NCBI GenBank assembly: GCA_021776795.1
Contig: JAJFFC010000012.1
Span: 174,724 to 238,723 of the forward strand
From: Planctomycetota bacterium
GTDB taxonomy: Bacteria; Planctomycetota; UBA1135
Length of the DNA stretch: 64,000 bases
Reading direction: 5' to 3'
Shown: piece after piece, positions 3,143 through 60,969 of the stretch
How the letters are laid out: each line of letters opens with the position of its first letter
How positions within the stretch are numbered: the stretch's first letter is position 1
Notes under the pieces: generated by a model
Database searches by the model: none
Seen by the model: the letters and a program-made list of their open reading frames with translations, nothing else
Told to the model about the DNA's origin: nothing
Program-made: the position numbers and the translations under genes

Positions 3143-5763
3143 GGGTCGAACGCCTCAAGAACTTGGCCTGGATCTTCGCCCTTTTCGTGGTGGTCCTGAT
3201 TGCCCGTCTATTCCAGTTGCAGGTTCTGCAGGCGGAACGATGGGAACGCGAAGCGCGGATATCGCGTTTAGAGAAGGCCACCCTGCCTTTCCGTCGTGGG
3301 CGCATATTGGATCGACATGGTGTGGTCCTGGCCGTGGACCGCCCTTCTTATGATCTTTATTTTCGCTACCGCGATTTCCGCCGCGGCCATATCTACGGCC
3401 AGCTGTTGGAATCTTTGTTGTTACGTGGTTTTGAAGTCGAGGGCGGCTTGGTGGCTGTGGCCAACCAAGGTGAAGCCTATGGCGAAGCGTTGTTACAGTT
3501 GAGCGGCAGCGACTTAATGCAAATGTCCAGTCGCACCCGAGGGGACTTCTTGTTCTATCTGGAAGGTGCATGCCAAGTAGAGCGGGGTCCATTGCGTGAC
3601 CAGTTGCGCGCCTTGGTCGAAGCGGGCGATCCACGCAGCCTAGTGCAAGCTCTGCCGCAATTGCGTGATCAACTGTATCAAGCATTGGCCCAAGCTGGCC
3701 GATCGTGGCATATTTTGGAACGTACCCTTGGTCCGGAATGGACGGGATTGTTATTGACCAAGTTGGAAGAACGTCGGCGCACCCTAGACCTGATGGTCAG
3801 CCGTGCTGTAGTGCAATCGGCAGCTGCTCGCGCCTTGGACCAAAGCCCCTCTTCGCTGCGGCGCTTACTGGCTCAGGTTCCGCTTAGTGAAGAGCCCACG
3901 TCGGCGCGGGTTGCCGTTACAGAGCTGATGCAGCGCTGGCAACTCGATGGCTACAACACCGATTTTTCCGAGCTGCTATTGGCGCGCCGGGAGGACGCTC
4001 CAGAGCGCAATCCTCAGGCCTGGTTACCCGGGCTGCGCGCATTGGAAGCCCATGTGCGGCAAGTGATGCCCACAGACATCGCAGGTTTGCGCAAGCAGGA
4101 AACACAACGCATCCACCATTTACGCGTGGTGAGTTTGGTGCGCGACCTGAACTTCGACCAAGTAGATTTGCTAGCCCAGCAAGCTAAGGTTTACCCTGGC
4201 TTGTACCTGCAAAATATTACGCGCCGTTTGTACCCCGAGCAGTTGCAGCCCTTGCTTTTGGGTTCGGTGCGCTTGCCTTCGGCCGACGACCTCGCCAATC
4301 TGAGTGAAGATCGCAACCGTTATGCCGAACTTGGGCGCATGTTCTATCGCAGTCCCGCCGAGGAAGCGGAGTTTCGGCAGTTGCAACACCGCCAGCTCAG
4401 TAATGCCCTGCGCCCAGATGAATCCAAAGGTGCCGACGGCGTGGAGCTGGTGTATGAAAAGGTGTTGCGCGGGCAGCGCGGGTATTTGCAGTTGCTCAAA
4501 GGCGGCGATGAAGGCCTAGAGCCCTTGGAACTACAGTTCTTCTCGCCTCAGGATGGTGCCGACGTCGTCCTTGCTCTAGACGCGGCCTTGGAAAAAGATG
4601 CACAGCTTTCCATTGCGCGGGTGTATCAGCAAACCTTGGCCACCTTGCGCGAGTTGTGGCCCAACGGTCCCGAACCCAGAGCCTTCCGTCCGGACTTTCC
4701 CAAGGTGGGCATGGTGCTGATGGATTTAGAGAATGGCGAAACCCCACTCTTAACCTCGGTGCCTACGATTTCGCGCCTAGAGGTGCGGGAGCAATGGAAT
4801 GACCTCGCTTCCATGAAGCAAGGCAGTCCTTTGCGCCAACGCGCCATCGGCGGGGGCTTCCACCTTCCAGAAACGCCGTACCCGGGGTCCACCTTTAAGG
4901 CGGTGACCGCTGCCGCTGCCTTGGACTTTGATCCAGGTTTGTGGGATCGAGCATACGAATGTTTGGGTGCCTATTCGCCCTTTGCCAATGCCAAGCCGCT
5001 CCATTGCGATGCTCGCTATGGCCACAATGTCATCACCATGCGCGACGCCCTGAAGAAGTCGTGCAACATCTACTTCTATAAGTTGGCCGAAGAAATCGGC
5101 GCAGAGGTTCTGGAGAGTTACTCACGTCGCCTTGGCTTTGGTCACGCCACCGGCATTGAGTTGGTGCGCGAGTTGCCGCCCGAAGAAGAAGGCGGTCCGT
5201 CACGGTGGGTAGGAAGCACCGGTTTGGAGCGCGGGGTCAATCGTCTTTCCAGCGCCGAAGACATGAGCCGCGACCGTTACTTGCTCATGCGTGTGGCCAT
5301 CGGCCAGCAAGGCATTCAGGCCAGCCCGTTGCAGATGGCGCGTTTCTACGCCTGGCTTGCTACAGGCAAGCTCTATCAGCCGCGCTTGGTGCGCCAGGGT
5401 GCAGGTGCTTCGCCTGCCATGCAGCCAGTCGATGTCCCGGTGCTGGCAGAGCGCGATCGTCGCCGCATCATTGATGCCTTGAGTGCGGTGTGCGAAGAGC
5501 GTGGAGGCACTGCCCACCTCACCGGCTTTCCTTCCTCTTGGGGAATCGTCGGCAAGACGGGCACCGCGCAGATTCGCCAGGCGGAAAACCCGATTCCCAC
5601 CCATGCCTGGTTTACAGGTTTCTTCCCGCGCGACAACCCGCGCTACGCCTTTGCCGTCTTGTGTGAGAACACAGGCCTTCACGGCGGACAGATTGCCAGC
5701 TTTGTGCTGAAGGACTTCTTGGAAAGCGAATCTGGTCAAGCACTATTAGGGGTGGAGCAGTGA
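3139..5763 (+). CDS. mrdA: penicillin-binding protein 2 (elongasome transpeptidase) with a large N-terminal insertion
   Basis: Start chosen at ATG 3139 (ATGA overlap with the mreD stop); the ORF track extends to 3055. TM anchor LAWIFALFVVVLIARL, RGRILDRHGVVLA, and active-site motifs STFK, SCN and KTGTA. 874 aa versus roughly 630 for typical PBP2. Confidence 0.9.
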   Translation: MRVERLKNLAWIFALFVVVLIARLFQLQVLQAERWEREARISRLEKATLPFRRGRILDRHGVVLAVDRPSYDLYFRYRDFRRGHIYGQLLESLLLRGFEVEGGLVAVANQGEAYGEALLQLSGSDLMQMSSRTRGDFLFYLEGACQVERGPLRDQLRALVEAGDPRSLVQALPQLRDQLYQALAQAGRSWHILERTLGPEWTGLLLTKLEERRRTLDLMVSRAVVQSAAARALDQSPSSLRRLLAQVPLSEEPTSARVAVTELMQRWQLDGYNTDFSELLLARREDAPERNPQAWLPGLRALEAHVRQVMPTDIAGLRKQETQRIHHLRVVSLVRDLNFDQVDLLAQQAKVYPGLYLQNITRRLYPEQLQPLLLGSVRLPSADDLANLSEDRNRYAELGRMFYRSPAEEAEFRQLQHRQLSNALRPDESKGADGVELVYEKVLRGQRGYLQLLKGGDEGLEPLELQFFSPQDGADVVLALDAALEKDAQLSIARVYQQTLATLRELWPNGPEPRAFRPDFPKVGMVLMDLENGETPLLTSVPTISRLEVREQWNDLASMKQGSPLRQRAIGGGFHLPETPYPGSTFKAVTAAAALDFDPGLWDRAYECLGAYSPFANAKPLHCDARYGHNVITMRDALKKSCNIYFYKLAEEIGAEVLESYSRRLGFGHATGIELVRELPPEEEGGPSRWVGSTGLERGVNRLSSAEDMSRDRYLLMRVAIGQQGIQASPLQMARFYAWLATGKLYQPRLVRQGAGASPAMQPVDVPVLAERDRRRIIDALSAVCEERGGTAHLTGFPSSWGIVGKTGTAQIRQAENPIPTHAWFTGFFPRDNPRYAFAVLCENTGLHGGQIASFVLKDFLESESGQALLGVEQ

Positions 5764-15470: not shown

Positions 15471-15887
15471 ATGACTAGACTCAAATCCATCGTCGGCCGT
15501 CAAGAACGCGTCGTCAGCATTAGTCCGCAAGCCACGGTGCGCGATGCGGCAAAGGCAATGGCTGCGGCCAATGTCGGTTGTGCCATCATCATGAATGGCC
15601 CCAAAGTGGTCGGTATGTTTACAGAGCGCGATGTCTTAAAGCGCGTGCTTCTGAACAATCTCGATGTCGATAGCGTGCAAGTCGGCGACGTCATGACCAC
15701 CGAACTGATTTGCGCTGGGGGAGACCACAAGGCGAATGACGCCCGCTTCCTCATGCAACGCCACCATATTCGTCACCTGCCGGTGCTCGATGATGAGGGC
15801 AACTTGCTCGGTGTGCTCTCTATTCGCGATTTGATCGAAGATCAAGTGCGCGAAATGAGTGACTACATCACGATGCACGAAGGCTGA
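15471..15887 (+). CDS. CBS-pair domain protein
   Basis: 138 aa. Two CBS repeats (VGMFTERDVLKRV and GVLSIRDLIEDQV). AGAGGA Shine-Dalgarno about 9 nt upstream. Confidence 0.85.
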   Translation: MTRLKSIVGRQERVVSISPQATVRDAAKAMAAANVGCAIIMNGPKVVGMFTERDVLKRVLLNNLDVDSVQVGDVMTTELICAGGDHKANDARFLMQRHHIRHLPVLDDEGNLLGVLSIRDLIEDQVREMSDYITMHEG

Positions 15888-15894
15888 GCCAAGA

Positions 15895-16548
15895 CTAGTT
15901 GGCCGATTTGACGCAGGGGGGACAAATGCCGTGCGTGACAGGGATAGTTTGTGCAATGTATTCGTGCAATGGCTGCCAGTCTTTCTGGCCCTGGTTCTCG
16001 ACACGAACGCTGCGGCACCACGCGCAAATAGGCAAGGCGTGGGAGAGTGCTGTTAACTCGATTCGTGCTCGCCGAAGCTCAATGAGGTTCACCACAGCAT
16101 TCCTCAAGATGCCTAATGCCTTGAGCTGGTGATCATTCAGGGTTCTTGGTTTGCTGTCGATGACGCAAAGAGTGCCCAACCTGATGCCTGGAGAAATCTC
16201 CAAGGGCGCGCCCGCATAAAACCGGATATGTGGATCCCCCGTAACCAAGGGGTTCTCGGCAAAGCGTTCGTCTTCGGTAGCGTCTTCGACCACCATGATT
16301 GAGGCATCTGCAATCGCATGGGAGCAAAAGGCATGCTCTCTTGGCGTCTCGAATGCGGCAAGGCCATAGCGAGCTTTAAACCACTGCCGATCTTGATCGA
16401 CCAGGCTCACCAAAGAGATTGGTGTGCCGCATATGGCAGCGGCGAGTTCAGCCAAGTGATCGAAAGCCCCTTCTGCCGCAGTGTCGAGAAGGTTTTGGAG
16501 ACGAAGCGAGTGCATTCGCTCCTTCTCATTGGGGGGGGAGGGGGGCAT
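15895..16548 (-). CDS. GAF-domain protein with a C-terminal Cys/His-rich module
   Basis: 217 aa. GAF hallmarks are REHAFCSHAI, VVEDATEDERFAENPLVTGDPHIRFYAGAPL and GTLCVID. The C-terminus reads CAWC-x29-HGICPPC. The ATG abuts the methyltransferase stop. Confidence 0.75.
   Translation of the reverse strand: MPPSPPNEKERMHSLRLQNLLDTAAEGAFDHLAELAAAICGTPISLVSLVDQDRQWFKARYGLAAFETPREHAFCSHAIADASIMVVEDATEDERFAENPLVTGDPHIRFYAGAPLEISPGIRLGTLCVIDSKPRTLNDHQLKALGILRNAVVNLIELRRARIELTALSHALPICAWCRSVRVENQGQKDWQPLHEYIAQTIPVTHGICPPCVKSAN
16531..16545 (-). repeat. C6-T-C8 homopolymeric tract (G8-A-G6 on the + strand) in codons 2-6 of the GAF gene
   Basis: Read directly: ATG CCC CCC TCC CCC CCC AAT, encoding M-P-P-S-P-P-N. 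Confidence 0.9.
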
Positions 16549-17589
16549 TCATGAGGGAGGCCGAACCAAGAATAGGTACTCCTGGTTCCTGACGTGGGAG
16601 ACCTTGCCTACGCGCTCGCCCTGCGGATTGTGGATGCCGATTTTGGCGCCGACATAGCGGGGGTGGCCGAAGGCGCGCGTTTCCACCGTGCCATGGACCC
16701 TCAATAGCGACTCCATCTGTTCGCGCGCGAGGTAACCCTCGTCACTGAAGGAGACCAAGAGCGGGCAGCCGTGGAGCTCGCGCAGGACTTCCTCCATGGC
16801 GACGGCACAGCCCGGTTTGGAGTTGAAGGCGCTTTTGCGCTCGCGCACATCGGTGCGCTTACAGGCAATGCCGTAAGTCTCTGGGGCATCCCAGCGCACT
16901 AGCGTTTCCCAAATGTGGTAGTTGCCGAGGTAAGAGTGCTGGTTGTACGGTGGGTCTAAATAGACCAAGCCGCCAGAAAAAGACTGGGCCGCTTCGAGTG
17001 CTTCCTTGCGCCAAGCTTGGCACGGGCCGGAGGTGGGGCGTGGCCATAACTCTGGCATGCGCAGCTCCAGGGCATGATGCGCGCGTGGCGCCCATTGTTT
17101 GAGATAGGCCATTTGCACACCGGCAGTGGAGTCGACGCGGTCCGCGGCTTCCATCAGGGACACCAGGAGAATGGCCTCTAGCTCGGGGTCATAAGCGCCA
17201 GCTTGAATGGCTTCGCGGACGGCTTCGATGCGCACGCCATTGGCTTCTTGGAAATAGCGGCTTTCGCGGCAATAACTTTGGGTGAACCAGCCACCAAGAT
17301 TGTCCCCCTCAACCGGGTTGGCATCGGCAATGTCTTGTAACCGACCAATCTCCTGCTGTGCGTGGTTCAGCCAAGATTCACGATCTGCCTGTATGTAGCA
17401 GCGGGCAATCGTTGCTGCGTAACTGTTGTGGTCATTAGCAATGACTTGATAGCCATCTTGTTTGAGCACTTGCCCGACCCGCGATGTGCCCGAGAACAAA
17501 TCCAATACGGTGCCGCTCGGCTGCAGGTCTCTCACTGCCTCGCGAATCGCGGGCAACAGAACCCGCTTCGAGCCGAGGTACTTAATCAC
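16549..17589 (-). CDS. orphan N6-adenine DNA methyltransferase, D12/Dam-like (alpha) class
   Basis: 346 aa with a GTG start. N-terminal MIKYLGSKR, motif I DLFSGTSRVG and motif IV LVYLDPPYNQ, in the order I then IV. No endonuclease or specificity gene on either side. Confidence 0.85.
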   Translation of the reverse strand: MIKYLGSKRVLLPAIREAVRDLQPSGTVLDLFSGTSRVGQVLKQDGYQVIANDHNSYAATIARCYIQADRESWLNHAQQEIGRLQDIADANPVEGDNLGGWFTQSYCRESRYFQEANGVRIEAVREAIQAGAYDPELEAILLVSLMEAADRVDSTAGVQMAYLKQWAPRAHHALELRMPELWPRPTSGPCQAWRKEALEAAQSFSGGLVYLDPPYNQHSYLGNYHIWETLVRWDAPETYGIACKRTDVRERKSAFNSKPGCAVAMEEVLRELHGCPLLVSFSDEGYLAREQMESLLRVHGTVETRAFGHPRYVGAKIGIHNPQGERVGKVSHVRNQEYLFLVRPPS

Positions 17590-19082
17590 GCGCGCTTGGC
17601 CGAGGCTTTACTTGCGCCCCAACGAACGGAACGCAGCACATGCGGGTGGAGGAGAACCAACACCGCAATCAATTCTAAGCGTCCCATCCACATGCCTAAG
17701 GTCAAGATGTAACGAGCAATGGGATCCAGCGTCGCGAAGTTCTCCATCGGTCCGACTGCGCCGAAGCCAGGGCCAATATTGCCGACGCAAGCCAGACTGG
17801 CGCTGAAGGAGACCACGAGATCATTGCCAATCAGGGCCAGCAGAACACCCACAGCCAGGTAGGTCATGACATAGCACATGACGAGGTTCAAGATGGCGCG
17901 CATGGCTTCTTCAGGTACTGCACGGCCGCGATGGCGTAGAGGTATGACCCCGCGCGGGTGCAGCACCCGCGTAAATTCTCGCCACATGAACTTCAGGGTC
18001 AGTAATGCACGAATCGATTTGGCGCCACCCGCGGCCGAGCCTGCGCAGCCGCCAATCAGCATGATCACGACCAGGAGCGCACGCATGCCATCGGTCCACG
18101 GTTCTTGGGCGTAGTCGACGCTGGCATAACCCGTGGAGGAAATCAGGCTGGCAGATTGGAATAAGCTGGTGCGCAGGGACTCCTCGCCCGGCAGGCCACC
18201 CGCCAGAAGCACCGCAAGAGTGATTGCGATGGTGCCCAGAGCGAGAATGTAAAAGCGGAACTCGCCGTCGCGCAAAAATTCCTTTGGGCGGCGCGTCAGG
18301 CCAATCCAAATCAAGGGAAAGCTCATGCCGGAAAGGATCATGAATACAGTCAAAATCCATTCTGCCGTGGGGTTGGCATAGCCGGCAATCGACGCCGGAT
18401 TGGGCGAGAAGCCGCCCGCAGACATGGTGGTCATGGCGTGGCAAACCGATTCATATAGGGTCATGCCAGCCACACTGTGCAGCAGCATGATCTCGCACAG
18501 GGTTAGGAATACATAAAGCAGCCACAAACGACGCGCGGATTCACGCACGCTGGGACTGATGACATCGGCGGTGGCGTCGGAGCCTTCGGCGAACATGATT
18601 TGCCGACCTGCTACACCCAACTGCGGAAGTACCACGACGAACAATGCGATTACGCCCAAGCCGCCAAACCATTGCGTCATCGAGCGCCATAAGAAGAAAC
18701 CACGGCCGTATTGGCTGAAGTCCTGCAGAATGGTGGCGCCAGTCGTGGTGAGTCCAGACATGGACTCAAAAAAGGCGTCGACGTAGCCGAGTCCTGAAAA
18801 GAAGTAAGGGATGGCGGCAAAGTGCGCGACCACAAACCAGGAGCCGGCGACCACTGCCAAAGCTTCGGCACGCCGGAAGTCAGGTGCAGTTCCCGAGAAG
18901 GAGCGCAGCACGAGTCCACCGACCAAGGTGATGCAAGCGGCAATCGCAAACTCAGCACATTCCCACCAAGTGCCGACTTCGTGAACGGCATCCCAGGTGG
19001 CCATCGCCAAGGGGGCGAGGAAAGCCAGAGAGAACACCAGCAGCAAGCGGCCAATGACTCCGAGAACGAGGGCTAAGCGCAT
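17586..19082 (-). CDS. trkH: Trk-type K+ uptake membrane subunit TrkH
   Basis: 498 aa polytopic protein. Pore-loop-like motifs SGLTTTGATIL, MSAGGFS, SSTGYASV and GGCAGSAAGGAKSIR. Confidence 0.9.
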   Translation of the reverse strand: MRLALVLGVIGRLLLVFSLAFLAPLAMATWDAVHEVGTWWECAEFAIAACITLVGGLVLRSFSGTAPDFRRAEALAVVAGSWFVVAHFAAIPYFFSGLGYVDAFFESMSGLTTTGATILQDFSQYGRGFFLWRSMTQWFGGLGVIALFVVVLPQLGVAGRQIMFAEGSDATADVISPSVRESARRLWLLYVFLTLCEIMLLHSVAGMTLYESVCHAMTTMSAGGFSPNPASIAGYANPTAEWILTVFMILSGMSFPLIWIGLTRRPKEFLRDGEFRFYILALGTIAITLAVLLAGGLPGEESLRTSLFQSASLISSTGYASVDYAQEPWTDGMRALLVVIMLIGGCAGSAAGGAKSIRALLTLKFMWREFTRVLHPRGVIPLRHRGRAVPEEAMRAILNLVMCYVMTYLAVGVLLALIGNDLVVSFSASLACVGNIGPGFGAVGPMENFATLDPIARYILTLGMWMGRLELIAVLVLLHPHVLRSVRWGASKASAKRA

Positions 19083-19094
19083 TGGGAGGCCGAC

Positions 19095-20459
19095 TTACTC
19101 GGCTGGTGTGGGGGCCGTGAAGTTTTCGAAAAACTCGTGGGTGGCCTCAGAATCTTCCGCGGTGCAGAACACCAGAATATTGTCGCCGCCTTGCAGAGTG
19201 TCGCGGCCTTGGGGAATGATGACTTTGTCCTCGTGGAGAACGGCCCCGACGATGGCGGTTACGGGTGCGCTCATGGCATAGAGCGGGGTTGGCGGCAAGC
19301 CTTCCGGAATGGTCAGGCGCAGGACGCGAGCCTCGCCATGATCAAACTCGGCCATGAGGTCGCGGTCGGCACGATTGACTCGCCGCTCCACCGCGCGAAT
19401 GGCAGCACCGGTGGCACTACGGACGACATCAATCCCTACTTGTTCAAACAGCCATTCGTTCGAGGCTTTGTCCGCCCGAGTGAGGATGCGCGGCACGCCC
19501 ATGCGTTTCGCAAGCAGCGAAATCAGCAAGTTTTTTTCATCGCTTGAGGTTACCGCAATCAACACCGGCGAATCAGAGACTGCTTCCTGTTGTAGTAACT
19601 CGAGATCTGTGCCATCTCCAAGGAGAACCAGGGATTTCAGGCGTGGGGCGATGTCTAGCGCGCGCTGTTCATTGGATTCAATCAGCTTGACCGTCCACCC
19701 TGCTTTTTCCAGCCGTTCGGTCACGCCAAAACCAACCGAGCCGCCGCCCACCACGACCGCCTGTTGCGGATTGCGACCTAGGGTGGGGTCGACCAGGTAT
19801 TGCGTGAGCAAGCGATTGATGCCCTCTAGGCTGCCCATGGCGGTAATTTTGTCGCCCGCTTGGAAGCGGGTGTCGCCCTTGGGGATAAAGCCCTTGTCTT
19901 CGCCATGTTGCCCAAAGACCAATACAACCCCTCGTGGGATGCCAATCTCTTTCAGCGTTCCCCGAGTGATGGGGGAGTCTTCCGCAATGCGCCGCCGCAC
20001 CAAGCGCACGCGACCATTCTCAAAGGAATCGGCTTCGAGTGCACCGGGAACCATCACAATCTTGATGATCTCGCGACCGAGACGCACGGCAGGCAGAACG
20101 ACTTGGTCGATGTGCAGGGACCGCGCCAAAGCTTCGGCTTCCAGTTCATTGGTCTGCACTTCATGGCGACGCAAGAAACAAGTGACATCACGCGCGCCTA
20201 ATCGTTTCGCCTCCGCACAACTCACCAGGTTGCTTTCATCGGCTTGCGAACAAGCGACGTAGTAATCCGCGGCATCAATGTCCGCTTGCTTGAGGGTAGC
20301 CGCCGCCGTGATTGAGCCATGGTGCACGCGCACGTCGAGCTTATCTAAAGCCGTCTCGCGCGAGCCCGCAGGCAGAATCAAGCTGACCTCATGGTCGAGC
20401 ATCAAGGCTTCCGCTAAGCGGAAGGCCACCTCGTCGTCGCCGCCGATGGTGATTTTCAT
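19095..20459 (-). CDS. trkA: Trk system NAD-binding (RCK) subunit TrkA
   Basis: 454 aa with two RCK_N+RCK_C halves. The second Rossmann motif VVVGGGSVGFG is intact. The first reads ITIGGDDEVA, so its GxGxxG is degenerate. Confidence 0.9.
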   Translation of the reverse strand: MKITIGGDDEVAFRLAEALMLDHEVSLILPAGSRETALDKLDVRVHHGSITAAATLKQADIDAADYYVACSQADESNLVSCAEAKRLGARDVTCFLRRHEVQTNELEAEALARSLHIDQVVLPAVRLGREIIKIVMVPGALEADSFENGRVRLVRRRIAEDSPITRGTLKEIGIPRGVVLVFGQHGEDKGFIPKGDTRFQAGDKITAMGSLEGINRLLTQYLVDPTLGRNPQQAVVVGGGSVGFGVTERLEKAGWTVKLIESNEQRALDIAPRLKSLVLLGDGTDLELLQQEAVSDSPVLIAVTSSDEKNLLISLLAKRMGVPRILTRADKASNEWLFEQVGIDVVRSATGAAIRAVERRVNRADRDLMAEFDHGEARVLRLTIPEGLPPTPLYAMSAPVTAIVGAVLHEDKVIIPQGRDTLQGGDNILVFCTAEDSEATHEFFENFTAPTPAE

Positions 20460-20473
20460 CGTCTCAAAGGATA

Positions 20474-20502
20474 GCAGCCTGAGGACTAAATCCCCAGGCT
20501 GC
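20474..20502 (-). other. 8-bp perfect hairpin in the TPR-trkA spacer
   Basis: GCAGCCTG (20474-20481) pairs with CAGGCTGC (20495-20502) around a 13-nt loop. No T-tract follows on the minus strand. Confidence 0.4.
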
Positions 20503-20537
20503 CGTTCTGGCGCAATGACCAGTGTTTCAAAGGGTGA

Positions 20538-22001
20538 TTATTCCTCAGTTTCGCCTTTCTTCAGCTTGCGCAGATTGTTCTTGGCGTCACGTAGCGCGAT
20601 GGTGATGCGTTGCATGTCTCCTTCCGCAACCTCGTTGTTGTCGAGCATTTCTTGAGCCCGCTCAGCAGCTTGGATGTACAGCTCTTCCGCGTAATCCAGG
20701 CGCTCCATGAGGTAGTAATGGAAGATGACCGCGTAATCGTTCATGACCTGCGGATCGGTCGGTTGCAGCTCCAGGGCGCGCTGATATGCATCGCGAGAGG
20801 CTTCTGATTCGCCGGTTTCGCGCAGGAAGTAGGCGAGGTTGTTCCAGGCGTCGGCATAGTCTGGAATCGTGCCCACAGCCCAGCGCAGCAACACCACTCC
20901 AGTTTCGTAGTCTTTCTTGCCGGCTAGCCAGTTCATGTTCTGGGCCACAGACAAGCCGCCGTCACCGCCTGCTTGCTTGAGCTGCATGCGGTACTGGTTG
21001 CCAAAACCCTTGAGGTACTCGGCCCAGAAGCCAGCGGCTGCGCTGTAAGCGCGTTCGGCAGTGTCTTGATCACCACTGGTGGACTGCTGTGCGCCACGTT
21101 GCATGGCGCCATCGGCAAGGAAGTAGTAGGCATTTGAAAAGTCCGGGTTGATTTCCAGGACCTTTAGGAAGTCGTCCCGCAACTTCGGCCAATTGTCAGG
21201 GCCAAGAGCGTAGAAGGCGGAGCCGCGATACCAGTAGTGCAGAACCTCTTCGGGTTGAGCTTCGATCAACTTGTCGTAAACCGGCACAGATTCCGTACCC
21301 AGCCACTGATAGAGGACATTGGGGTCGACGCCTTCGGGGTCGTTGCTTGCGGCAGCAACCCAACTTTCGAGCGCTTGCTTCTTCAGCGGTTCACTGCTGG
21401 CGCCACCCTCGAGGTAGTCGAGCCACAACAGTTCCGCCAAGCGCAGGCGTGGCGCGGCAGTTTTTGGCGCCGAAGAAATCGCCTTACGGAAGCTCGCTTC
21501 CGCGGCTTGTTTCAGTTCCGCAGCCGATTCTTCGTTGCCGTTCTCTTTCGCGGCGCGGGATTTGGCGAGTTGTACACGGCCGCGTTGGGCCAGGAGGAGG
21601 GCATCGTTGCGGAAGGCGCTTAGGCCATCTTCCAAAGTTTTCAGGCTGTTGGGAATGTCATTGGCGTTGAGTAGCACTTCAGACCAATCGACCCAAACTT
21701 GCACCGGGGCATCATTGCACTGCGAGGCCTTTTCCAGGCGCCATGCCATCTCCATGAACTCATCGACAATTTCCAAGCCAGCGATGCGGCCTGCGGCGAT
21801 GTCATTTTCCAACTGGCGGGTGCCCCAAGTGGCGTAGGCATGCCACGCGCCAGCATCTTGGGAATCGGTGACGCCAGCATCTTCTAAGGTACTGACGGCG
21901 GCGGAGAATTGGCCCTTATCGCCAAGCGAGGAGGCGTTGGCGACGGCAGCTTCTAGGTCAGAAGCCTGCAGGGCAAAGGCGAGGACTAGGGAGGTAATCA
22001 T
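20538..22001 (-). CDS. secreted TPR-repeat protein
   Basis: 487 aa. N-terminal hydrophobic MITSLVLAFALQA. TPR-like helices (AWNNLAYFLRETGESEASRDAYQRALELQP). The C-terminal third is paralogous to the upstream gene. Confidence 0.6.
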   Translation of the reverse strand: MITSLVLAFALQASDLEAAVANASSLGDKGQFSAAVSTLEDAGVTDSQDAGAWHAYATWGTRQLENDIAAGRIAGLEIVDEFMEMAWRLEKASQCNDAPVQVWVDWSEVLLNANDIPNSLKTLEDGLSAFRNDALLLAQRGRVQLAKSRAAKENGNEESAAELKQAAEASFRKAISSAPKTAAPRLRLAELLWLDYLEGGASSEPLKKQALESWVAAASNDPEGVDPNVLYQWLGTESVPVYDKLIEAQPEEVLHYWYRGSAFYALGPDNWPKLRDDFLKVLEINPDFSNAYYFLADGAMQRGAQQSTSGDQDTAERAYSAAAGFWAEYLKGFGNQYRMQLKQAGGDGGLSVAQNMNWLAGKKDYETGVVLLRWAVGTIPDYADAWNNLAYFLRETGESEASRDAYQRALELQPTDPQVMNDYAVIFHYYLMERLDYAEELYIQAAERAQEMLDNNEVAEGDMQRITIALRDAKNNLRKLKKGETEE

Positions 22002-23794
22002 GGGTTCTCTTTGCGGAGTTCAGCGAGCACTATGCGCAGGCGCTGTACTCCAGTACGTTCTTCGTAGGGGAAATGTTTCACGCTTTGGCGTAGAAAGTGC
22101 TCAGATTCGCCAATTTCACCCCTACGCACGAGGTAGAGGTAGGCGAGGTTCTCCCAGGCATCGCCAACCGCCATATCGACGTACTCATGTTCCGATTCCG
22201 GAACATTTTCGTCCATTTCAGCCAGTGCAGCAGTGCCTAGGTCAATAGCCCTATGCAACTCTTGTTCCGCCAGGTCGTGATCTTCGTCGCGATAATAAAC
22301 CGCAATCAGGGCGCGGTCATTGACCACACGCGCATCTTCAGGGAGTAGCTCCACAGCACGGCTGTAGGCTTCCCAAGATTCCTCGAACAACTCCGCCGCT
22401 TGCTCGACGTCGCCGGCCTCCATGGCCATCACTCCCAAATCGCGACAGAAGAATCCCAGGTTGTTGCACCAGTTGCCTTCGTCATTGCGCACGGCGCAAA
22501 CTTGGCGCAAGAAGGACCGAGCATTCTTGAGGTCATTGGCGCGGAAGTAATCCGCCACGATGGCATCGATCGCCAAGTGCAGACTTTCTGGCGCCGAGGT
22601 TGGCTCTAGGCGCTCGGGATTCTGGCGCAAGGTGTTGAGCAAACTCGAGGCGGCATCATCGATACGACCCTCATCGCGCAAGGTCCAACCTCGTTGGGTA
22701 CGGACTAAGAACAACCAGTCTTCGCAACTGGATTGGTAGTCCTCACGCAAGGCCATCGCTTGATGGAAGCGGTCTTCGGCGCGATCCCAGCACGAAGAGG
22801 CCAGCAAGGTGTCGCCCACACTGCGCGCTTCGCGGCCCTGTAAATAGAGCGCTTCGCCGAGATACCAAAGCACGGTGGCGTTGCTCGGATGCGCGGCCTG
22901 TACCGATTCCAATACGCGAATGCCTGCTTCGCGACTTTGGTCCCCCAGCGGGCGCAGGCGTCCATAAAACTCGACATTCTCCGGGCTAAGCAGTAAGCCG
23001 GCTTGCAGAGAGGCCATGGCCTGGGTGGTCAGCCCTTGCCAGGCCGCGAGGTCACTAAGCGGGACAAAGGCAGCCATCAGGCCGGCATCGGCAGCGCGGG
23101 CCAGGGCGGTGGCACCATGTCGAGCAGCGGCCGGGGTGAGGGAGCCGGCTTGGATTTCGGCGATGGTCCAGGCCAAACCCGCCTGGCCGATGCTAAGGAG
23201 GTCGGCGGCGACTTCCGGGTCGCCGGCATCCAGGTTGTCGAGCAAGGGGCGCATGGCATTGGCCTTGGACCAGGCAGCCTTGCTTTCCCCGAGTCGTTGA
23301 TGGGAGTCTAGCTCTAGGCGCAGGCAATCGCGTTCGGCGGCACCGGCTGCACGGGCCGCTTGCGCGCGTTCCCTCGTGTCCAAGCACAGAGTCTCTGCCA
23401 GAGCAGGGTCGAGGCGGTTTGCGGCAAGTCGTTGGTCGAAGAGCTCGCGCGAGGCTTCGGCATAAAGCAAGGAGAACTGGGCCAACTGGTCGCTGCCAAT
23501 CGCACCTTCAGCTTCGGCATCATCGAGCTGATTCAGCACATGTTCCGGGTCTTGGCTGAGCTCCGCAGCCAAAGCTTCCAGGTCCAGGCCCGCCGGTGAA
23601 CCAAGAACTGCGCCTTCCTCGGGTCCGCCTTCCTCGGGGGCAGCCACCACCGGGGTCGTGCCTTCCTCTTCGGTATGGGGTTTAGGCGCGGCCGCGCAGG
23701 CGCCAAGGAGGCAAAATGGCAGCCAAATCCATGCCCTTCGAGGGGCAATTTGGCTTTTTTGCAGGGACAAGGAGAAATGTTGGCGGAAACTCAT
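21998..23794 (-). CDS. TPR-repeat lipoprotein
   Basis: 598 aa from ATG 23794 (the ORF track starts at GTG 23821). Signal plus lipobox-like WIWLPFCLLGAC. TPR-like repeats. Its stop overlaps the next gene's start by 4 nt. Confidence 0.6.
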   Translation of the reverse strand: MSFRQHFSLSLQKSQIAPRRAWIWLPFCLLGACAAAPKPHTEEEGTTPVVAAPEEGGPEEGAVLGSPAGLDLEALAAELSQDPEHVLNQLDDAEAEGAIGSDQLAQFSLLYAEASRELFDQRLAANRLDPALAETLCLDTRERAQAARAAGAAERDCLRLELDSHQRLGESKAAWSKANAMRPLLDNLDAGDPEVAADLLSIGQAGLAWTIAEIQAGSLTPAAARHGATALARAADAGLMAAFVPLSDLAAWQGLTTQAMASLQAGLLLSPENVEFYGRLRPLGDQSREAGIRVLESVQAAHPSNATVLWYLGEALYLQGREARSVGDTLLASSCWDRAEDRFHQAMALREDYQSSCEDWLFLVRTQRGWTLRDEGRIDDAASSLLNTLRQNPERLEPTSAPESLHLAIDAIVADYFRANDLKNARSFLRQVCAVRNDEGNWCNNLGFFCRDLGVMAMEAGDVEQAAELFEESWEAYSRAVELLPEDARVVNDRALIAVYYRDEDHDLAEQELHRAIDLGTAALAEMDENVPESEHEYVDMAVGDAWENLAYLYLVRRGEIGESEHFLRQSVKHFPYEERTGVQRLRIVLAELRKENP

Positions 23795-23807
23795 GGCCGA
23801 TGGCGTC

Positions 23808-23813
23808 ATTATA
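23808..23813 (-). promoter_or_regulatory. perfect TATAAT (minus strand) upstream of the TPR lipoprotein gene
   Basis: The reverse complement of ATTATA is TATAAT, 13 nt before ATG 23794. It abuts the GGGAG Shine-Dalgarno (23814-23818) of the divergent + strand gene. Confidence 0.35.
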
Positions 23814-23823
23814 GGGAGCACTT

Positions 23824-34705: not shown

Positions 34706-35464
34706 ATGACTTCAGAACCTTTGCAGCCAGACTTTGCCGTGCCTCGCCATGTGGGCCTGATCATGGACGGCAATGGCCGCTGGGCCAAGCGCACTGGGCA
34801 ACCGCGTTTGCGCGGTCATGAAGCCGGTGTGGAATCAGTACGTGATGTCGTCGAAGCTGCAGCCGAGTGGGGGATTCAACACCTCACCCTGTACGCCTTC
34901 TCGGTAGAGAACTGGCAACGCCCAGCACAGGAAGTAGAAGGGCTCATGGCATTCCTTTCCCACTTCTTGCGCGAAGAAGAGCCAACTCTGTTGCGCAATG
35001 GGGTTCGCCTGAAGGGTCTTGGCGACCTTGGCCAGTTGCCTGACGAGGTGCGTGCCACTCTTGCCGAGGTGGAGCAGAACACCGCAGGTGGAGAGCGCCT
35101 AACCCTACGCCTGGCGTTGTCCTATGGCGGACGCCAAGAAATCGCCCATGCCGCCAAAAAACTGGCGCAAGAAGTTCTGGATGGTTCACGCGGCGTGGAC
35201 AGCATCGACCTCGAGAGTTTGTCTGCATCGATGTACGACCCCGACATGCCCGACCCGGACTTAATTGTGCGCACGGCAAGCGAAATTCGCCTTTCGAATT
35301 TCTTGTTGTGGCAGGCCAGTTATGCCGAGTTTCATTTCACCGACACCCTGTGGCCCGATTTCCGCAGAGAGCACCTATACCGCGCCCTGCAGGATTACCA
35401 TGGCCGCGTCAGACGCTTTGGCAAGGTGTTGTCGCGTGATCCCGCCGTGGAGGACCAAGCATGA
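34706..35464 (+). CDS. uppS: undecaprenyl-diphosphate synthase
   Basis: 252 aa. HVGLIMDGNGRWA, LTLYAFSVENW, and RTASEIRLSNFLLWQASYAEF. Confidence 0.95.
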   Translation: MTSEPLQPDFAVPRHVGLIMDGNGRWAKRTGQPRLRGHEAGVESVRDVVEAAAEWGIQHLTLYAFSVENWQRPAQEVEGLMAFLSHFLREEEPTLLRNGVRLKGLGDLGQLPDEVRATLAEVEQNTAGGERLTLRLALSYGGRQEIAHAAKKLAQEVLDGSRGVDSIDLESLSASMYDPDMPDPDLIVRTASEIRLSNFLLWQASYAEFHFTDTLWPDFRREHLYRALQDYHGRVRRFGKVLSRDPAVEDQA

Positions 35465-45954: not shown

Positions 45955-46971
45955 GTGAGCTCGGTTTCCCGAATCATGCCCCCTGCCTCCTTTCGTGCCA
46001 CGGTCCCTGCGGATCTCGACGGCCAGCGCCTGGACAAGGTCGCTGTCGCCCTATTGGGGGCCTCAGTGTCCCGGAGCCGCCTTTCCAGCTGGATTCGTGA
46101 CGGACGCCTGACAGTCGACGGCGAAATCCTGCAAAAGCCGGGTTTGCTGGTGCTACAAGGCCAGGAGCTGGTCCTGGCACCACCCAATTTGGAAATTCCT
46201 GAGCCAGGGTCGGCCCTGGAGCCTGGAATCCTCTACGAAGACGAGCATCTTGCGGTCCTGGACAAACCCGCTGGCCTACCGATGCACGGCAATTCCCCCG
46301 GGGATTCACAAATGTCGGTGGCCAACTGGATGATGGCGCGTTATGGCAAGAGCCTTCCGATTGGCCAAGGTGCGGAGCGGCCGGGGATTGTCCACCGCCT
46401 CGACCGCGGCACTTCTGGAGCTTGCGTGGTGGCCTTTGATCGCCAAGTGTTCGAGGACCTGCAAGAGCAATTCGCCGAGCGGTCGGTGGAAAAGGAGTAT
46501 CACGCCTTGTGCTATGGCAATCCGCGCTTTCAGGGCGATTGGATCGATGCTCGCTTGCAGGCCGACCCCAAGCACCCGCAGCAGGTGCGCACCACCTCGC
46601 GGCAGGACCCAAGCACGCGTGACGCCATGACATGGTGGGAGCAGATGGAAACCTTCGATGGCTTTGTCTTGATGCGGGTGAAGCCCAAGACCGGGCGCAA
46701 GCACCAGATTCGCGTCCACCTGACTTCGATTGGCTGCCCGATTGTTGGCGATCCCTATTACCGCGCCCGCAACTACGGCTTGGGCATGCTGCCGGAAACT
46801 TGCCCCGAAGTGGAGCGCACGCTGTTGCACGCTGCGGTGATTGATTTTGAGCACCCGGTCGATGGCGGCCGCTTGCGCATCCAATCGGAGCATCCGCATG
46901 TGATGCGCGATGTCCTCGCGGTGTTGCGCAAAGAGCGCCCACTCATCGTAGAACCCAAGAAACGCAGTTGA
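45955..46971 (+). CDS. rluD: RluA-family 23S rRNA pseudouridine synthase (RluD-like)
   Basis: 338 aa. S4 domain (RLDKVAV...RSRLSSWIRDGRLTVDG), catalytic HRLDRGTSGACVVA, and GRKHQIRVHL. Confidence 0.85.
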   Translation: MSSVSRIMPPASFRATVPADLDGQRLDKVAVALLGASVSRSRLSSWIRDGRLTVDGEILQKPGLLVLQGQELVLAPPNLEIPEPGSALEPGILYEDEHLAVLDKPAGLPMHGNSPGDSQMSVANWMMARYGKSLPIGQGAERPGIVHRLDRGTSGACVVAFDRQVFEDLQEQFAERSVEKEYHALCYGNPRFQGDWIDARLQADPKHPQQVRTTSRQDPSTRDAMTWWEQMETFDGFVLMRVKPKTGRKHQIRVHLTSIGCPIVGDPYYRARNYGLGMLPETCPEVERTLLHAAVIDFEHPVDGGRLRIQSEHPHVMRDVLAVLRKERPLIVEPKKRS

Positions 46972-55546: not shown

Positions 55547-56366
55547 TTCGTGGACGCTTTTCGAAGTATTCGTCGAGGCTACCGCGGAAGTTCTCTAAGT
55601 CTTCGTCGACGGGGGTGGCCTCGTGGGTGAATGGAGTCTCCGTGGGTGGCGCGTCGGCCGTGCCCGTGGGAACTCGCTGGCCAGAATAGCAGGCACGTAG
55701 GACTTCGCCGACCGTCTTCTGCGGCATCGTTTGCTCCTGGGCGATCACGCGAATGAGCTCCTTGGTGCTATTCCACCACAGGTAGATGGCCATGATGAGG
55801 CCCAACCAAAAGGCACCAAAGTAGATGGCGGAGAGAAGCACGATTAAGGCCAGCCAGCGTGCGATGCGCACCGTGGCATAGGTGGCGTCGACCATTGGGT
55901 TGTAGCTCGCAAACCAGGATCGCAGCAGACGGCCGCCGTCGAGCGGGAACGCGGGGACGAGATTGCCGAGCCCGAAGACCAAGTTGATCCACAGCGCAAT
56001 CTCTGCCCATTGGCCGGGAAGAAATAAGCACAGACCCGCTAGGAATAGGTTGGCCACTGGCCCCGCTGCGGCAACTGGAGCCTCGAGCCCAGGCCTAAAC
56101 AGGCTCCCACGCATGCGTGCCATGCCACCAAAGGGCGTAATCGTGATGTCGATGACCTCTAGCCCGAGTACGCGGGCCACGAGGGCGTGCGCCAACTCAT
56201 GCACCAGAAGGGAGATAGCGACAATCAGGAACAGGCCTGCAATCAGCCAGAAACTGCTTCCACCCGCCCCAGCCATAGCAAAGGCCAGGAAAAGGACCGG
56301 AATCAACGCCGGAACCACCAAAATTGGGATTCCGAACAGCTGACCGCAGCGGGCAGGAGCAAACAT
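55536..56366 (-). CDS. M50-family (site-2 protease-like) membrane metalloprotease
   Basis: 276 aa polytopic protein. HELAHALVAR (HExxH) inside a TM helix, and a downstream LGNLVPAFPLDGGR motif. Confidence 0.8.
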   Translation of the reverse strand: MFAPARCGQLFGIPILVVPALIPVLFLAFAMAGAGGSSFWLIAGLFLIVAISLLVHELAHALVARVLGLEVIDITITPFGGMARMRGSLFRPGLEAPVAAAGPVANLFLAGLCLFLPGQWAEIALWINLVFGLGNLVPAFPLDGGRLLRSWFASYNPMVDATYATVRIARWLALIVLLSAIYFGAFWLGLIMAIYLWWNSTKELIRVIAQEQTMPQKTVGEVLRACYSGQRVPTGTADAPPTETPFTHEATPVDEDLENFRGSLDEYFEKRPRNDS

Positions 56367-58065: not shown

Positions 58066-59859
58066 TTACTCCTTTGAGCGCAGGCGTTCCTTCTCGCGCA
58101 GGAGGCGCTTGCGCAGGCGCAAGGACTCTGGGGTGACCTCGAGCAGCTCATCGGCAGCAAGGTACTCTAGAAACTGTTCCAAGCTCAGCTGGCGTGGGGC
58201 GCGAATGCTTTCGGTGGTGTCCTTGCCGGCGGCGCGCATATTGCTCATTTTCTTGGCGCGGACCACGTTGACGGCAATGTCTTTGTCCTTGTTGTTCTCG
58301 CCGACGACCATGCCTTCGTAGATTTGGTCCCCGCCGGTCACAAAGAATACGCCACGGTCTTCTAAGTTGCGCAGGGAGTAGCCTGTCGCTTGGCCGCTAT
58401 CCGAAGCCACCAAAACGCCGCGGTGGCGGGTGATGATTTCTCCCGAATAGGGTCGGTACTGAGATGGAATCGAAGCCAAGACCCCTTCGCCGCGGCTCAA
58501 GGTAAGCACGGTGGAGCGGGCACCGAGCAAGCCACGCGTTGGGACTTCCATGTGCAGTGTGGCGCGATCGCCGCGGCGCTCCATGTCGGTGATTTCGGCA
58601 CCACGATTGCCGAAGAACTCAATCACCCGACCAACCGCATCTTCCGGCAAGTCGAGGCGGGCGTTCTCCCATGGCTCCTGCATCTTGCCATCGATTTCCT
58701 TGGTCAAGACGCGTGGTGAACCCACGGCGAACTCATATCCTTCACGGCGCATGTTCTCGATCAAAATGCCGAGGTGCAGGACACCACGGCCAGCGACCAA
58801 CATGCCGCCAGATTCGCCCTGGCGAATGCGCAATGCCGGGTCAATCATAGAGGCGCGATTGAGACGCTCTTGCACCTGGCGCGAAGTGACGAACTGCCCT
58901 TCTTTGCCGGCGAAGGGGGAGTCGTTGACGAGGAAAGCCATTTCAATCGTGGGCTCTTCCACGGTAATCGGCGGCAAAGGTTCCACCACCTCGAGATCGC
59001 AAAGGGAGTCCCCCAAGCCAAACTCGCCGAGGCCAGCAACCGAAGCAATGTCGCCAGCTTCGACGACCTCGGCATCTTGACGCTCGAGGCCGACGATGCG
59101 GTAGAGCTCCTTAATTTTGCCGCGTGTGCGCTTGCCATCGTTGTGGACCCAGGCGACCTCATCGCCTTTCCTCATGCGCCCGCGCAACACTCTGCCGATG
59201 CCAATGCGGCCGACGAAATCGGACCAGTCCAAAGTGGCGATTTGGAACCGTAGAGGGCCATCGGCGTCGACTTCGGGACCAGGGAAAACCTTGAGGATGA
59301 GGTCGAGCATCGGCGCCATGTCGGTGCCGGGGACATGCTCATCCATGCTCGCCCAACGGTCGCGGGCGGAGCAGTAAATCACCGGGAAATCCAGCGCCAG
59401 TTCATCGGCACCAAGCTCCACGAAGAGATCGAAGACTTCGCCAAGCACGGCATCGGCGCGTGCGTCTTGGCGGTCCATCTTGTTGACCACGACTAGGGGG
59501 CGCAGGTGATTCTCAAATGCTTTCTGAATCACAAAACGGGTTTGCGGCATGACGCCTTCGAAGGCATCGACGACCAGCAACACGCCATCGGCCATCGACA
59601 ACACACGTTCGACTTGACCACCAAAGTCGGCGTGGCCTGGGGTGTCAATCAAATTGACGCGCACCCCTTTCCAATCCAGCGAAGCATTCTTCGACAGAAT
59701 CGTAATGCCGCGCTCGCGTTCGAGGTCATTGCGGTCCATAACCCGGTCCGCACCTGCTTGGTTTCGGTCTAGACTTCCCGCGGCGCGGAATAGCCCATCA
59801 ACCAGGGTGGTTTTTCCATGGTCGACATGGGCGATGATCGCAACATTGCGGAGTTCCAT
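58066..59859 (-). CDS. typA: translational GTPase TypA/BipA
   Basis: 597 aa. [25 protein letters not shown] and VVNKMDR. EF-G-like domains. The ATG directly abuts the mlaD stop. Confidence 0.97.
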
Positions 59860-60969
59860 TTAGAAGTTGCCGAAAAGCAGTTGAGTGAAGGTGCTGATGG
59901 GTTGCGCTTCGCGCGCATCCTCGAGTTGGCCATTGAGAGAACGGAGCGCTTGCACCAATTCTTCGTAGGCTTCATCTTCACTGAGCAGTCGCCCGAGGGA
60001 GCCTTCGCCGTCTTTGAGGCGGCGCGAGACTTCGGACAAGTTGGCAAGCAGTTCGCTTGCGTCATCGGCCAGGTCCTGATCAGAGATGAGTGTTCCAAGC
60101 AGGCCGGCGCCGCCCTCCTGGGCATCATGGAGAATCAGGTCAAGGCGGCCGGAAGCTTGCTCCAAATTATGCAGTAGCGCGGTGGCGTCTTCGCGCATAC
60201 CGGGATCATTTAATAGAGCGCCAATCAGGCCCTCGCCATCGCGGGCTGCGGTGAGCACGCCACGCAGGTCACCGGCGGCCGCGCCAGCATCTTCAATCAG
60301 GGCGATGACCTTCTCACGCGTGGCCTCGTCCTGGAGCAGGGCGCCGAGGGTGCCCTTGCCGTCTTTAAGGTCCTCCATCAGGGTGGAGAGGTCTAAAACC
60401 GTGCTGCTGACGTTGTCACGCAGCTCCTCGTCGTGAATGAGCGCGCCGAGGACACCTTTGCCTTGGGCGACGTCATCGGAGGCCGTGACCAAGTTGTCGA
60501 TTAGCTGCTTGACGCCCTCGCGGTTCTCGCCAATCAGGGAGTTTAGGCTTTCGAGCGCGGATTCATCGACGGTGCCCACCAGTTCGATGCCTTCAGCGAG
60601 GGGTGGATTTTCGCTCGGACCGGGGTCAATTTCGACCACGCGGCCACCCAAGACCGTAAATTCGGCCACACGCATGGTGTATCCCTCGTGCAAATTCGGC
60701 GGCTCTTCAAACTCCATGCTCACGCCAATCCGCGTGGCGAAGGGGCGCTGATCGTAATACTGAATATCGCGCACGGTGCCAATCGGGCGCCCTGCAACCA
60801 GGACCGCGTCGCCATTCTTCAGGCCACGAGCGTCGGGGAAGTAGGCCTCGAGTTGGGTCTTGTCGGCAAGGCTAAAGCCAGTCAAGACGATGGTGTAGTA
60901 AAGCAACAGGGCCAGTGCGCCAAAGAAGGCGAGGCCAAGAGCAAAATCGCGGCTACGAGTCGATTCCAT
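59860..60969 (-). CDS. mlaD: MCE/MlaD-family periplasmic lipid-transport protein with a C-terminal repeat region
   Basis: 369 aa from ATG 60969, one nt after the mlaF stop (the ORF extends to 61110). TM anchor [20 protein letters not shown] domain [17 protein letters not shown], then five G-x-G-x-LG-x-L-h-x-D repeats. Confidence 0.8.

Follow-up and report, generated by a model that had tools for sequence, protein, structure and literature searches.

A predicted solitary adenine methyltransferase behind trkAH in a Planctomycetota bacterium, probably a domesticated descendant of a restriction-modification system

Gene content of the locus

We examined a string of four genes in a 64,000-nucleotide (nt) stretch of a Planctomycetota bacterium (contig JAJFFC010000012.1 of assembly GCA_021776795.1, positions 174,724 to 238,723; hereafter the window). 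In this string the K+ uptake genes trkA and trkH run directly into a gene for a DNA methyltransferase (MT), which is followed by a gene for a GAF-domain protein. The four open reading frames (ORFs), all on the minus strand, and their junctions had been described in an earlier interpretation made from the letters alone (the sequence-only reading), and every coordinate proved exact when the ORFs were read again. The features are as follows, in the order of transcription of the string:

19095-20459, minus strand: trkA, 454 amino acids (aa), the NAD-binding regulatory subunit of the Trk K+ uptake system
19083-19094, minus strand: spacer of 12 nt from the trkA stop to the trkH start
17586-19082, minus strand: trkH, 498 aa, the membrane subunit of the Trk K+ uptake system
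17586-17589, minus strand: GTGA overlap, in which the GTG start of the MT shares bases with the TGA stop of trkH
16549-17589, minus strand: MT gene, 346 aa, a predicted solitary alpha-class (D12) N6-adenine DNA methyltransferase
15895-16548, minus strand: GAF gene, 217 aa, a stand-alone GAF-domain protein whose ATG (16548) abuts the TGA of the MT
15471-15887, plus strand: CBS-pair gene, convergent, closing the string 7 nt from the GAF stop

The domain identities proposed for all four proteins were borne out by Pfam and NCBIfam profiles. TrkA contains two TrkA_N and two TrkA_C domains (Pfam) and scored 305.7 against NCBIfam NF007039, above the cut-off of 293. TrkH was matched by PF02386 at 4.3e-61 (207 bits), while its score of 265 against TIGR00933 fell under the cut-off of 331. 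A TrkA with both pairs of TrkA_N and TrkA_C domains and a TrkH membrane subunit, the two parts of a Trk system, are both encoded. The two genes are adjacent, co-directional and tightly spaced with a standard domain architecture, as in canonical trkA-trkH operons, but differ from these in the extra MT gene at the 3' end within the clade described below and, in the window and one related locus, in the GAF gene as well. The GAF protein was assigned by PF01590 (2.5e-12, 47.9 bits against a cut-off of 22.4). Around the MT lie trkH and the GAF, CBS, Lrp/AsnC and TPR genes, and the window as a whole is core housekeeping territory, with MreB, RodA, a penicillin-binding protein, a tRNA synthetase, PurA and others.

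Class and conservation of the methyltransferase

Residues 4-252 of the MT were matched by PF02086 (MethyltransfD12) at 108.4 bits (cut-off 22, E = 6.6e-31), and PADLOC assigned the protein to its MTase_II model PDLC03298 (2.5e-144). The full catalytic set that had been read from the sequence (YLGSKR, DLFSGTSRVG and DPPY) was upheld when 26 family members were aligned, with the core residues invariant and most others nearly so. The D12 class is recognized by a motif I (FxGxG-like) placed before DPPY, with the target-recognition region in between. The window MT has this order: D30-L-F-S-G34, the S-adenosylmethionine (AdoMet) motif I, lies N-terminal to D212-P-P-Y215 (motif IV), both are invariant in the 26 sequences, and the AlphaFold2 (AF2) model (pLDDT 83) contains a helical insert between them. 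The family N-terminus reads M-I-K-Y-L-G-S-K, which supports the called MT start.

The earlier label 'Dam-like' holds at the level of the class, but does not extend to the Dam equivalog, as the score against the Dam model TIGR00571 was 20.7 bits with a cut-off of 114.85. The window MT also differs from CcrM in not being of the beta class. With the Type II D12 MTs of the FokI, LlaI and HpyI/NlaIII-type branch it shares the Pfam family and the N-terminal xYxGSK motif. For its distant relatives in phages and plasmids, at 25-32% identity, the annotations name FokI, LlaI or 'ulcer-associated' (HpyI-type) methylases. Unlike those enzymes it is a single-domain protein, with no endonuclease seen in the window or in the clade loci checked.

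Searches of the PDB with the MT sequence and profile returned no Dam, T4 Dam, DpnM or other DNA methyltransferase relative, and Foldseek with the AF2 model found only generic Rossmann methyltransferases in the PDB (TM-score <=0.36), which are uninformative on specificity. Our literature search for the family found no paper giving a recognition motif. Orphan MTs predominate in the methylomes of marine metagenome-assembled genomes (MAGs), among them a planctomycete with a TTAA-like MT (Hiraoka 2022, PMC8919816); TTAA was considered as the specificity of the window MT and dropped, as no link between that enzyme and this family could be established.

The MT has a GC content and a GC content at third codon positions (GC3) typical of the window. 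Its ratio of nonsynonymous to synonymous substitution rates (dN/dS) was 0.06-0.07, compared with 0.03-0.07 for TrkH, CBS and Lrp. The gene is compositionally native and under strong purifying selection comparable to that on its neighbors, and it appears to be a resident, maintained gene.

Linkage to trkH in one clade

A syntenic trk-MT neighborhood was found in ten related loci, drawn from MAGs and metagenomes of marine Planctomycetota (L001, L081-L087, L090 and L091; collected loci are cited by number), the last of these being the only further clade locus from the metagenome scan. The MTs of the ten loci are 63-91% identical to the window MT, and their TrkH proteins 68-97% identical to the window TrkH. 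Loci of sufficient length share one order, in which a Big_5-domain gene borders a TPR-TPR-trkA-trkH-MT series that meets convergent CBS and Lrp/AsnC genes and a cystathionine lyase gene. The TPR pair was syntenic with trkA-trkH-MT in each clade locus that was long enough to contain it (L081, L083, L085-L087, L001 and L091). The clade loci checked all kept the 4-nt overlap of trkH and the MT, in which the MT start was GTG, TTG or ATG, and the trkA-trkH spacer measured 3-12 nt in the relatives. A concatenated tree gave ((((window, L082), L081), L090), L083) plus an outgroup of four, and the MT gene tree agreed with those of the neighboring genes. The sequence-only reading had called for a survey of homologue neighborhoods for conserved trkH or GAF linkage. 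The linkage to trkH was conserved in all ten relatives, but that to the GAF gene was found in one of the ten only.

If the link suggested in that same reading is spelled out, the dose of MT would follow trkAH, so that methylation or its read-out would report the K+ or osmotic state of the cell, with the GAF protein as sensor or reader. The retention of the 4-nt overlap across the clade, while TrkH diverged to about 68-70% identity, is a point in favor of this proposal, but outside the clade the genes that precede members of the MT family are unrelated and show no enrichment for ion transport.

The methyltransferase family outside the clade

The family is very large, with at least 8000 matches, and its members are about 55-60% identical across phyla. 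Hosts include Planctomycetota, Myxococcota, Brevundimonas, Acetobacteraceae, Chloroflexota and others. We surveyed the neighbors of family members in 80 GTDB loci, and collected 189 MT loci in all. The upstream gene was co-directional with the MT in 65 of 78 cases, and its identity was lineage-specific and of a housekeeping kind. Pyruvate kinase was the upstream gene in 18 loci, mostly of Brevundimonas, and this pairing is a second, independent case of stable residence at the 3' end of a housekeeping gene. Other upstream genes encoded radical SAM proteins, carbamoyl-phosphate synthase, NadA, citrate synthase and assorted transporters. TrkH was found upstream only once in the surveyed GTDB loci (L001), and this arrangement is confined to the one clade. 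The downstream genes were equally diverse. In nine Brevundimonas/Caulobacteraceae loci (L034, L037-L040, L044, L057, L061, L062) an ORF of about 90 aa follows the MT behind pyruvate kinase.

Initiation appears to be generally weak in the family, as suggested by the start codons, about half of which are GTG or TTG (ATG 80, GTG 64, TTG 21). In 158 of 169 loci the MT start reads NTGA, so that a TGA stop in the +1 frame is built in. A -4 overlap of the MT with a long upstream ORF occurred in 33 of 158 loci, about the general rate of the window.

Members of the family are nearly all chromosomal and hardly ever occur on mobile elements. A scan of 2.9 million viral contigs yielded only 16 loci, and phages gave one close homologue, annotated as hypothetical, in Thermus phage phiLo (MH673673.1, 169762-170763; 47% identity over 99% of the length). 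In plasmids there was no match above 32% identity.

A putative endonuclease partner

When PADLOC was run on the neighbor sets, Type II endonuclease models were matched beside a minority of family members. In 12 of the 189 loci (about 6%) a conserved protein of about 260-320 aa, matched by the PADLOC model REase_II (PDLC03579), is encoded directly upstream of the MT. These loci are:

L016, 41-1006: putative endonuclease gene
L045, 1033-2010: putative endonuclease gene
L033, 784-1560: putative endonuclease gene
L036, L099, L110, L120, L124, L127, L137, L158 and L162: putative endonuclease gene in each

The putative endonuclease has 284 homologues, found in Phycisphaerales, Chloroflexota, Armatimonadota and one archaeon. 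It gave no Pfam domain and no PDB relative, and among the matches listed all were unnamed or 'hypothetical'. Because a minority of the family keeps this gene immediately upstream, we infer a Type II restriction-modification pair as the ancestor of the MT family. In identity clustering the endonuclease-linked MTs were interspersed among solitary ones, to which they are about 63% identical. Such a pattern implies repeated loss of the endonuclease or, less likely, its repeated gain.

The same observations bear on a second explanation, in which the solitary MT is kept mainly as a 'molecular vaccination' against restriction-modification pairs that circulate and belong to the family of the MT itself. 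By methylating the motif of these pairs it would shield the chromosome from their attack or addiction. Such vaccination has an established precedent in Dcm and EcoRII (PMC2993543), and the resemblance to that case lies in a solitary MT related to the MTs of pairs still in circulation, with shared specificity assumed here. The 12 loci that still carry the putative endonuclease speak for this explanation, and the interspersion of linked and solitary MTs at about 63% identity is compatible with a shared specificity, which is nevertheless an assumption. Against it, the endonuclease family is small (284 homologues against at least 8000 for the MT) and its cleavage activity is putative. The long syntenic retention and a dN/dS of about 0.06 are, moreover, equally seen in conserved regulatory orphans (PMC4752239). 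We consider vaccination unlikely as the main reason for retention.

Orphan status in the window and clade

PADLOC and Pfam searches of the 47 window proteins found no restriction enzyme or other defense protein besides the MT, and no specificity subunit or helicase lies near it. The putative endonuclease of the family had no homologue within the 64-kb window; a weak endonuclease-like tblastn match (55869-56006) was an M50 peptidase and was set aside as a chance match. In the eight clade loci that were read from annotated gene tables (L081-L087 and L090), no endonuclease gene lay beside the MT, and none was among the checked neighbors of the MT in L001. With no adjacent cognate endonuclease gene, the MT is not part of a restriction-modification system of Type II within the window. 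These results, together with the housekeeping surroundings, support the view of the sequence-only reading that the MT is an orphan by context.

A split restriction-modification system, with the cognate endonuclease elsewhere in the genome and the MT not truly an orphan, would account for the same absence. The search covered 64 kb of the genome, and cognate genes are occasionally far apart (PMC8919816). We nonetheless find a split system very doubtful, since the window yielded no endonuclease homologue by tblastn, apart from the peptidase match, and none by PADLOC, and no endonuclease lies beside the MT in the eight annotated clade loci or in most other loci of the family.

In its chromosomal position with no adjacent endonuclease, its synteny and vertical inheritance within lineages, its purifying selection and its intact catalytic motifs, the window MT resembles the solitary Type II adenine MTs, including Dam, CcrM and the orphans of Blow et al. 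(2016, PMC4752239). The long-term conservation of the MT resembles in particular that of the clade-conserved regulatory orphans reported there, although that paper makes no mention of these taxa. The MT family, with identities of about 55-60%, differs from such conserved orphans in being scattered patchily among several phyla and not confined to one class.

Junction geometry and translation starts

In the trkA-trkH-MT-GAF string the stop and start codons overlap at the trkH-MT junction and abut at the MT-GAF junction, a geometry that would fit a translationally coupled operon but is common in the window. Gene calling gave 47 genes with 31 same-strand junctions, of which eight were -4 overlaps, two were gaps of 0 nt and two were gaps of 12 nt. 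Examples of very tight junctions elsewhere in the window were observed at 59859-59860, 5760-5763, 35461-35464 and 46968-46971. A Shine-Dalgarno (SD)-like sequence preceded just 19-25% of the 47 genes. The earlier claim that the MT and GAF starts have no SD was in keeping with this scarcity; because a missing SD is the rule in the window, it is not evidence for the coupling deduced from it. As overlaps and missing SDs are the default of this genome, the string is not marked as special, and this geometry also argues against a particular link of the MT to K+ uptake.

No promoter-like (sigma-70) or intrinsic-terminator-like site was found at the three junctions of the string with scans that are not tuned to Planctomycetota. 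This agrees with the operon-like packing claimed before, and the string looks like one transcription unit, although the result is compatible with such a unit rather than proof of it.

The GAF gene

The GAF gene is present in one of the ten clade loci, L090, in which the MT is 70% and the GAF protein 60% identical to their window counterparts. Neither of the two closest relatives, L082 (MT 91%) and L081 (MT 83%), has the gene, nor do the remaining seven loci. Where the gene is missing, the MT stop lies 9-77 nt from the CBS stop. L090 is the only one of the 189 collected MT loci with this GAF gene. A search for homologues of the GAF protein gave 7777 matches at about 60% identity, and the other members of this family stand alone in unrelated neighborhoods with no MT neighbor. 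Because of this distribution, within the clade and beyond it, the GAF gene is best read as a variable accessory and not as a conserved partner of the MT.

The presence of the gene in the window and L090 calls for a single gain and then two clean losses, or else for gain on two occasions in one and the same 3'-3' spacer. When 120 GAF homologues were placed in a tree, it was star-like, with about 60% identity throughout, and resolved neither gain from loss nor whether the window and L090 proteins are sisters. GC and GC3 gave no clear sign of foreign composition (z about -1.7, like the neighboring CBS and Lrp genes). For the proposal of a sensor linked to methylation, the gene behind the MT in two lineages that are not sisters is a favorable point; its absence from nine of ten clade loci, the two closest relatives included, and a GAF family that elsewhere has no MT neighbor are points against it.

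A public protein (P0121, 206 aa, 100% identical) starts at Met12 of the GAF protein, the region concerned being 16513-16548 on the minus strand. The GAF family conserves the motif PxNExxR upstream of Met12, and because residues in this stretch are conserved we take Met1 to be the real start. The start of P0121 is then probably 11 codons short, and the true start abuts the MT stop. The annotation at Met12 seems to have been drawn by an SD-like AAGGAG, which merely encodes a conserved E-K-E-R.

The C-terminus of the GAF protein (about 45 residues, 15895-16030) carries a nearly invariant CAWC-x(~20)-W-x(~12)-(T/S)HGxCPxC in the 120 aligned homologues. No Pfam model covers this cysteine motif, which looks like a zinc-binding module.

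A hairpin upstream of trkA and the proposed link to K+ uptake

The spacer of 78 nt between the preceding TPR gene and trkA contains a further element:

20473-20503, minus strand: strong hairpin of about 14 bp, 13 nt 5' of the trkA ATG

Its predicted RNA fold has an energy of -32.8 kcal/mol (z = -3.2). Three relatives have a hairpin in the same place with another stem sequence (z -3.8 to -5.3), at these approximate positions:

L085, 5107-5141: hairpin upstream of trkA
L087, 5107-5141: hairpin upstream of trkA
L091, 3108-3140: hairpin upstream of trkA

The four hairpins are of 13-15 bp, end about 13-16 nt before the trkA ATG, and are followed by a conserved TGYTATCMTTT. Their position is thus kept across both sub-clades while the stem sequences differ. 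The hairpin could be a 5' untranslated region (5'-UTR) element of trkA, or a terminator or attenuator after the TPR genes that marks the start of the trkA-trkH-MT unit. Searches of the locus, hairpin included, at Rfam gathering thresholds found no family and no known riboswitch. The sole sub-threshold Rfam match in the locus was a snoRNA and was judged to be due to chance.

An element of conserved position that could control the whole unit is a further point for a link between methylation and K+ uptake, but the lack of a known riboswitch is one against it. Taken with the unrelated upstream genes outside the clade, we consider it very unlikely that methylation reports the K+ or osmotic state with the GAF protein as its sensor or reader. 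Comparative support for the tie that the sequence-only reading drew from ionic or osmotic state, or from the GAF protein, to methylation was not found, the trkH linkage being limited to one clade and the GAF linkage to one locus in ten. In a more far-reaching version, MT dose would be slaved to trkAH through the hairpin and an obligatory reinitiation at GTGA, m6A (N6-methyladenine) would track K+ demand, the GAF protein with its four-cysteine motif would modulate or read the methylation, and the MT family would constitute an unrecognized global methylation system like those of Dam and CcrM. We regard this version as highly improbable.

Origin and retention of the methyltransferase

The explanation that we favor, with moderate confidence, is that the MT is a domesticated solitary alpha-class m6A MT of restriction-modification origin that became fixed behind trkH, and that its adjacency to the trk genes is historical and not functional. 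Under this explanation the endonuclease would have been lost in most lineages of the family, and the MT fixed in the chromosome behind some housekeeping gene. In the ancestor of the clade the MT would have landed behind trkH and then been retained clade-wide by vertical inheritance. The window locus would be a compact string of a marine Planctomycetota genome, made up of the TPR pair, the hairpin and trkA-trkH-MT in that order, to which the GAF gene is an optional addition. Transcription may occur by read-through from the trkA promoter region, with low-level translation from the weak GTG by ribosomes that terminate at the overlapping trkH TGA. The expected outcome would be a low, constitutive methylation of a short motif. 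The GAF gene would be an insertion that varies among lineages and took the one free spacer, the 3'-3' gap that precedes CBS, with co-expression through its abutment on the MT stop. Candidate uses of the methylation are roles in regulation or replication like those of Dam and CcrM, or protection from restriction-modification elements that share its specificity.

Several points weigh against this explanation. The trkH-MT linkage is stable to MT identities as low as about 63%, which could be due to selection for co-expression and not just to inertia. That the window and L090, two non-sister lineages, have the GAF gene in one and the same site hints that the MT-GAF adjacency might be favored. Both the m6A activity of the MT and its recognition motif are predictions. 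Co-transcription and translational coupling are deduced from the geometry of the genes, and scans for sigma-70 promoters and terminators carry limited weight in Planctomycetota. As the search for an endonuclease took in 64 kb, a distant cognate enzyme is possible.

If the favored explanation is right, the locus provides a clean example of a domesticated MT derived from restriction-modification that has settled stably, as a passenger, at the 3' end of a housekeeping operon, and gene adjacency should not be counted as functional coupling without comparative support. Of greater use than the locus may be a wider by-product, namely a very large and strongly conserved family of solitary predicted m6A MTs, uncharacterized in the literature searched, with a small unnamed family of putative endonucleases as its occasional partner. 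The value of the analysis rests mostly on the size and conservation of this family and on its putative partner, and less on the adjacency to trk and GAF genes. Cultured carriers of the family exist, including Brevundimonas diminuta and Sandaracinus amylolyticus, so that motif and function are directly testable.

Genes upstream of trkA

The TPR pair that precedes trkA in the window consists of two overlapping genes, co-directional with the string:

21998-23821, minus strand: TPR-repeat gene, the first of the pair
20538-22001, minus strand: TPR-repeat gene, the second of the pair

As mechanically called, the start of the first TPR gene (GTG 23821, minus strand) lies only 2 nt from the start of the divergent Big_5-domain gene (ATG 23824, plus strand). 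The gap between the two starts is about 29 nt in the relatives. Probably the true TPR start lies further downstream, or two promoters overlap coding sequence.

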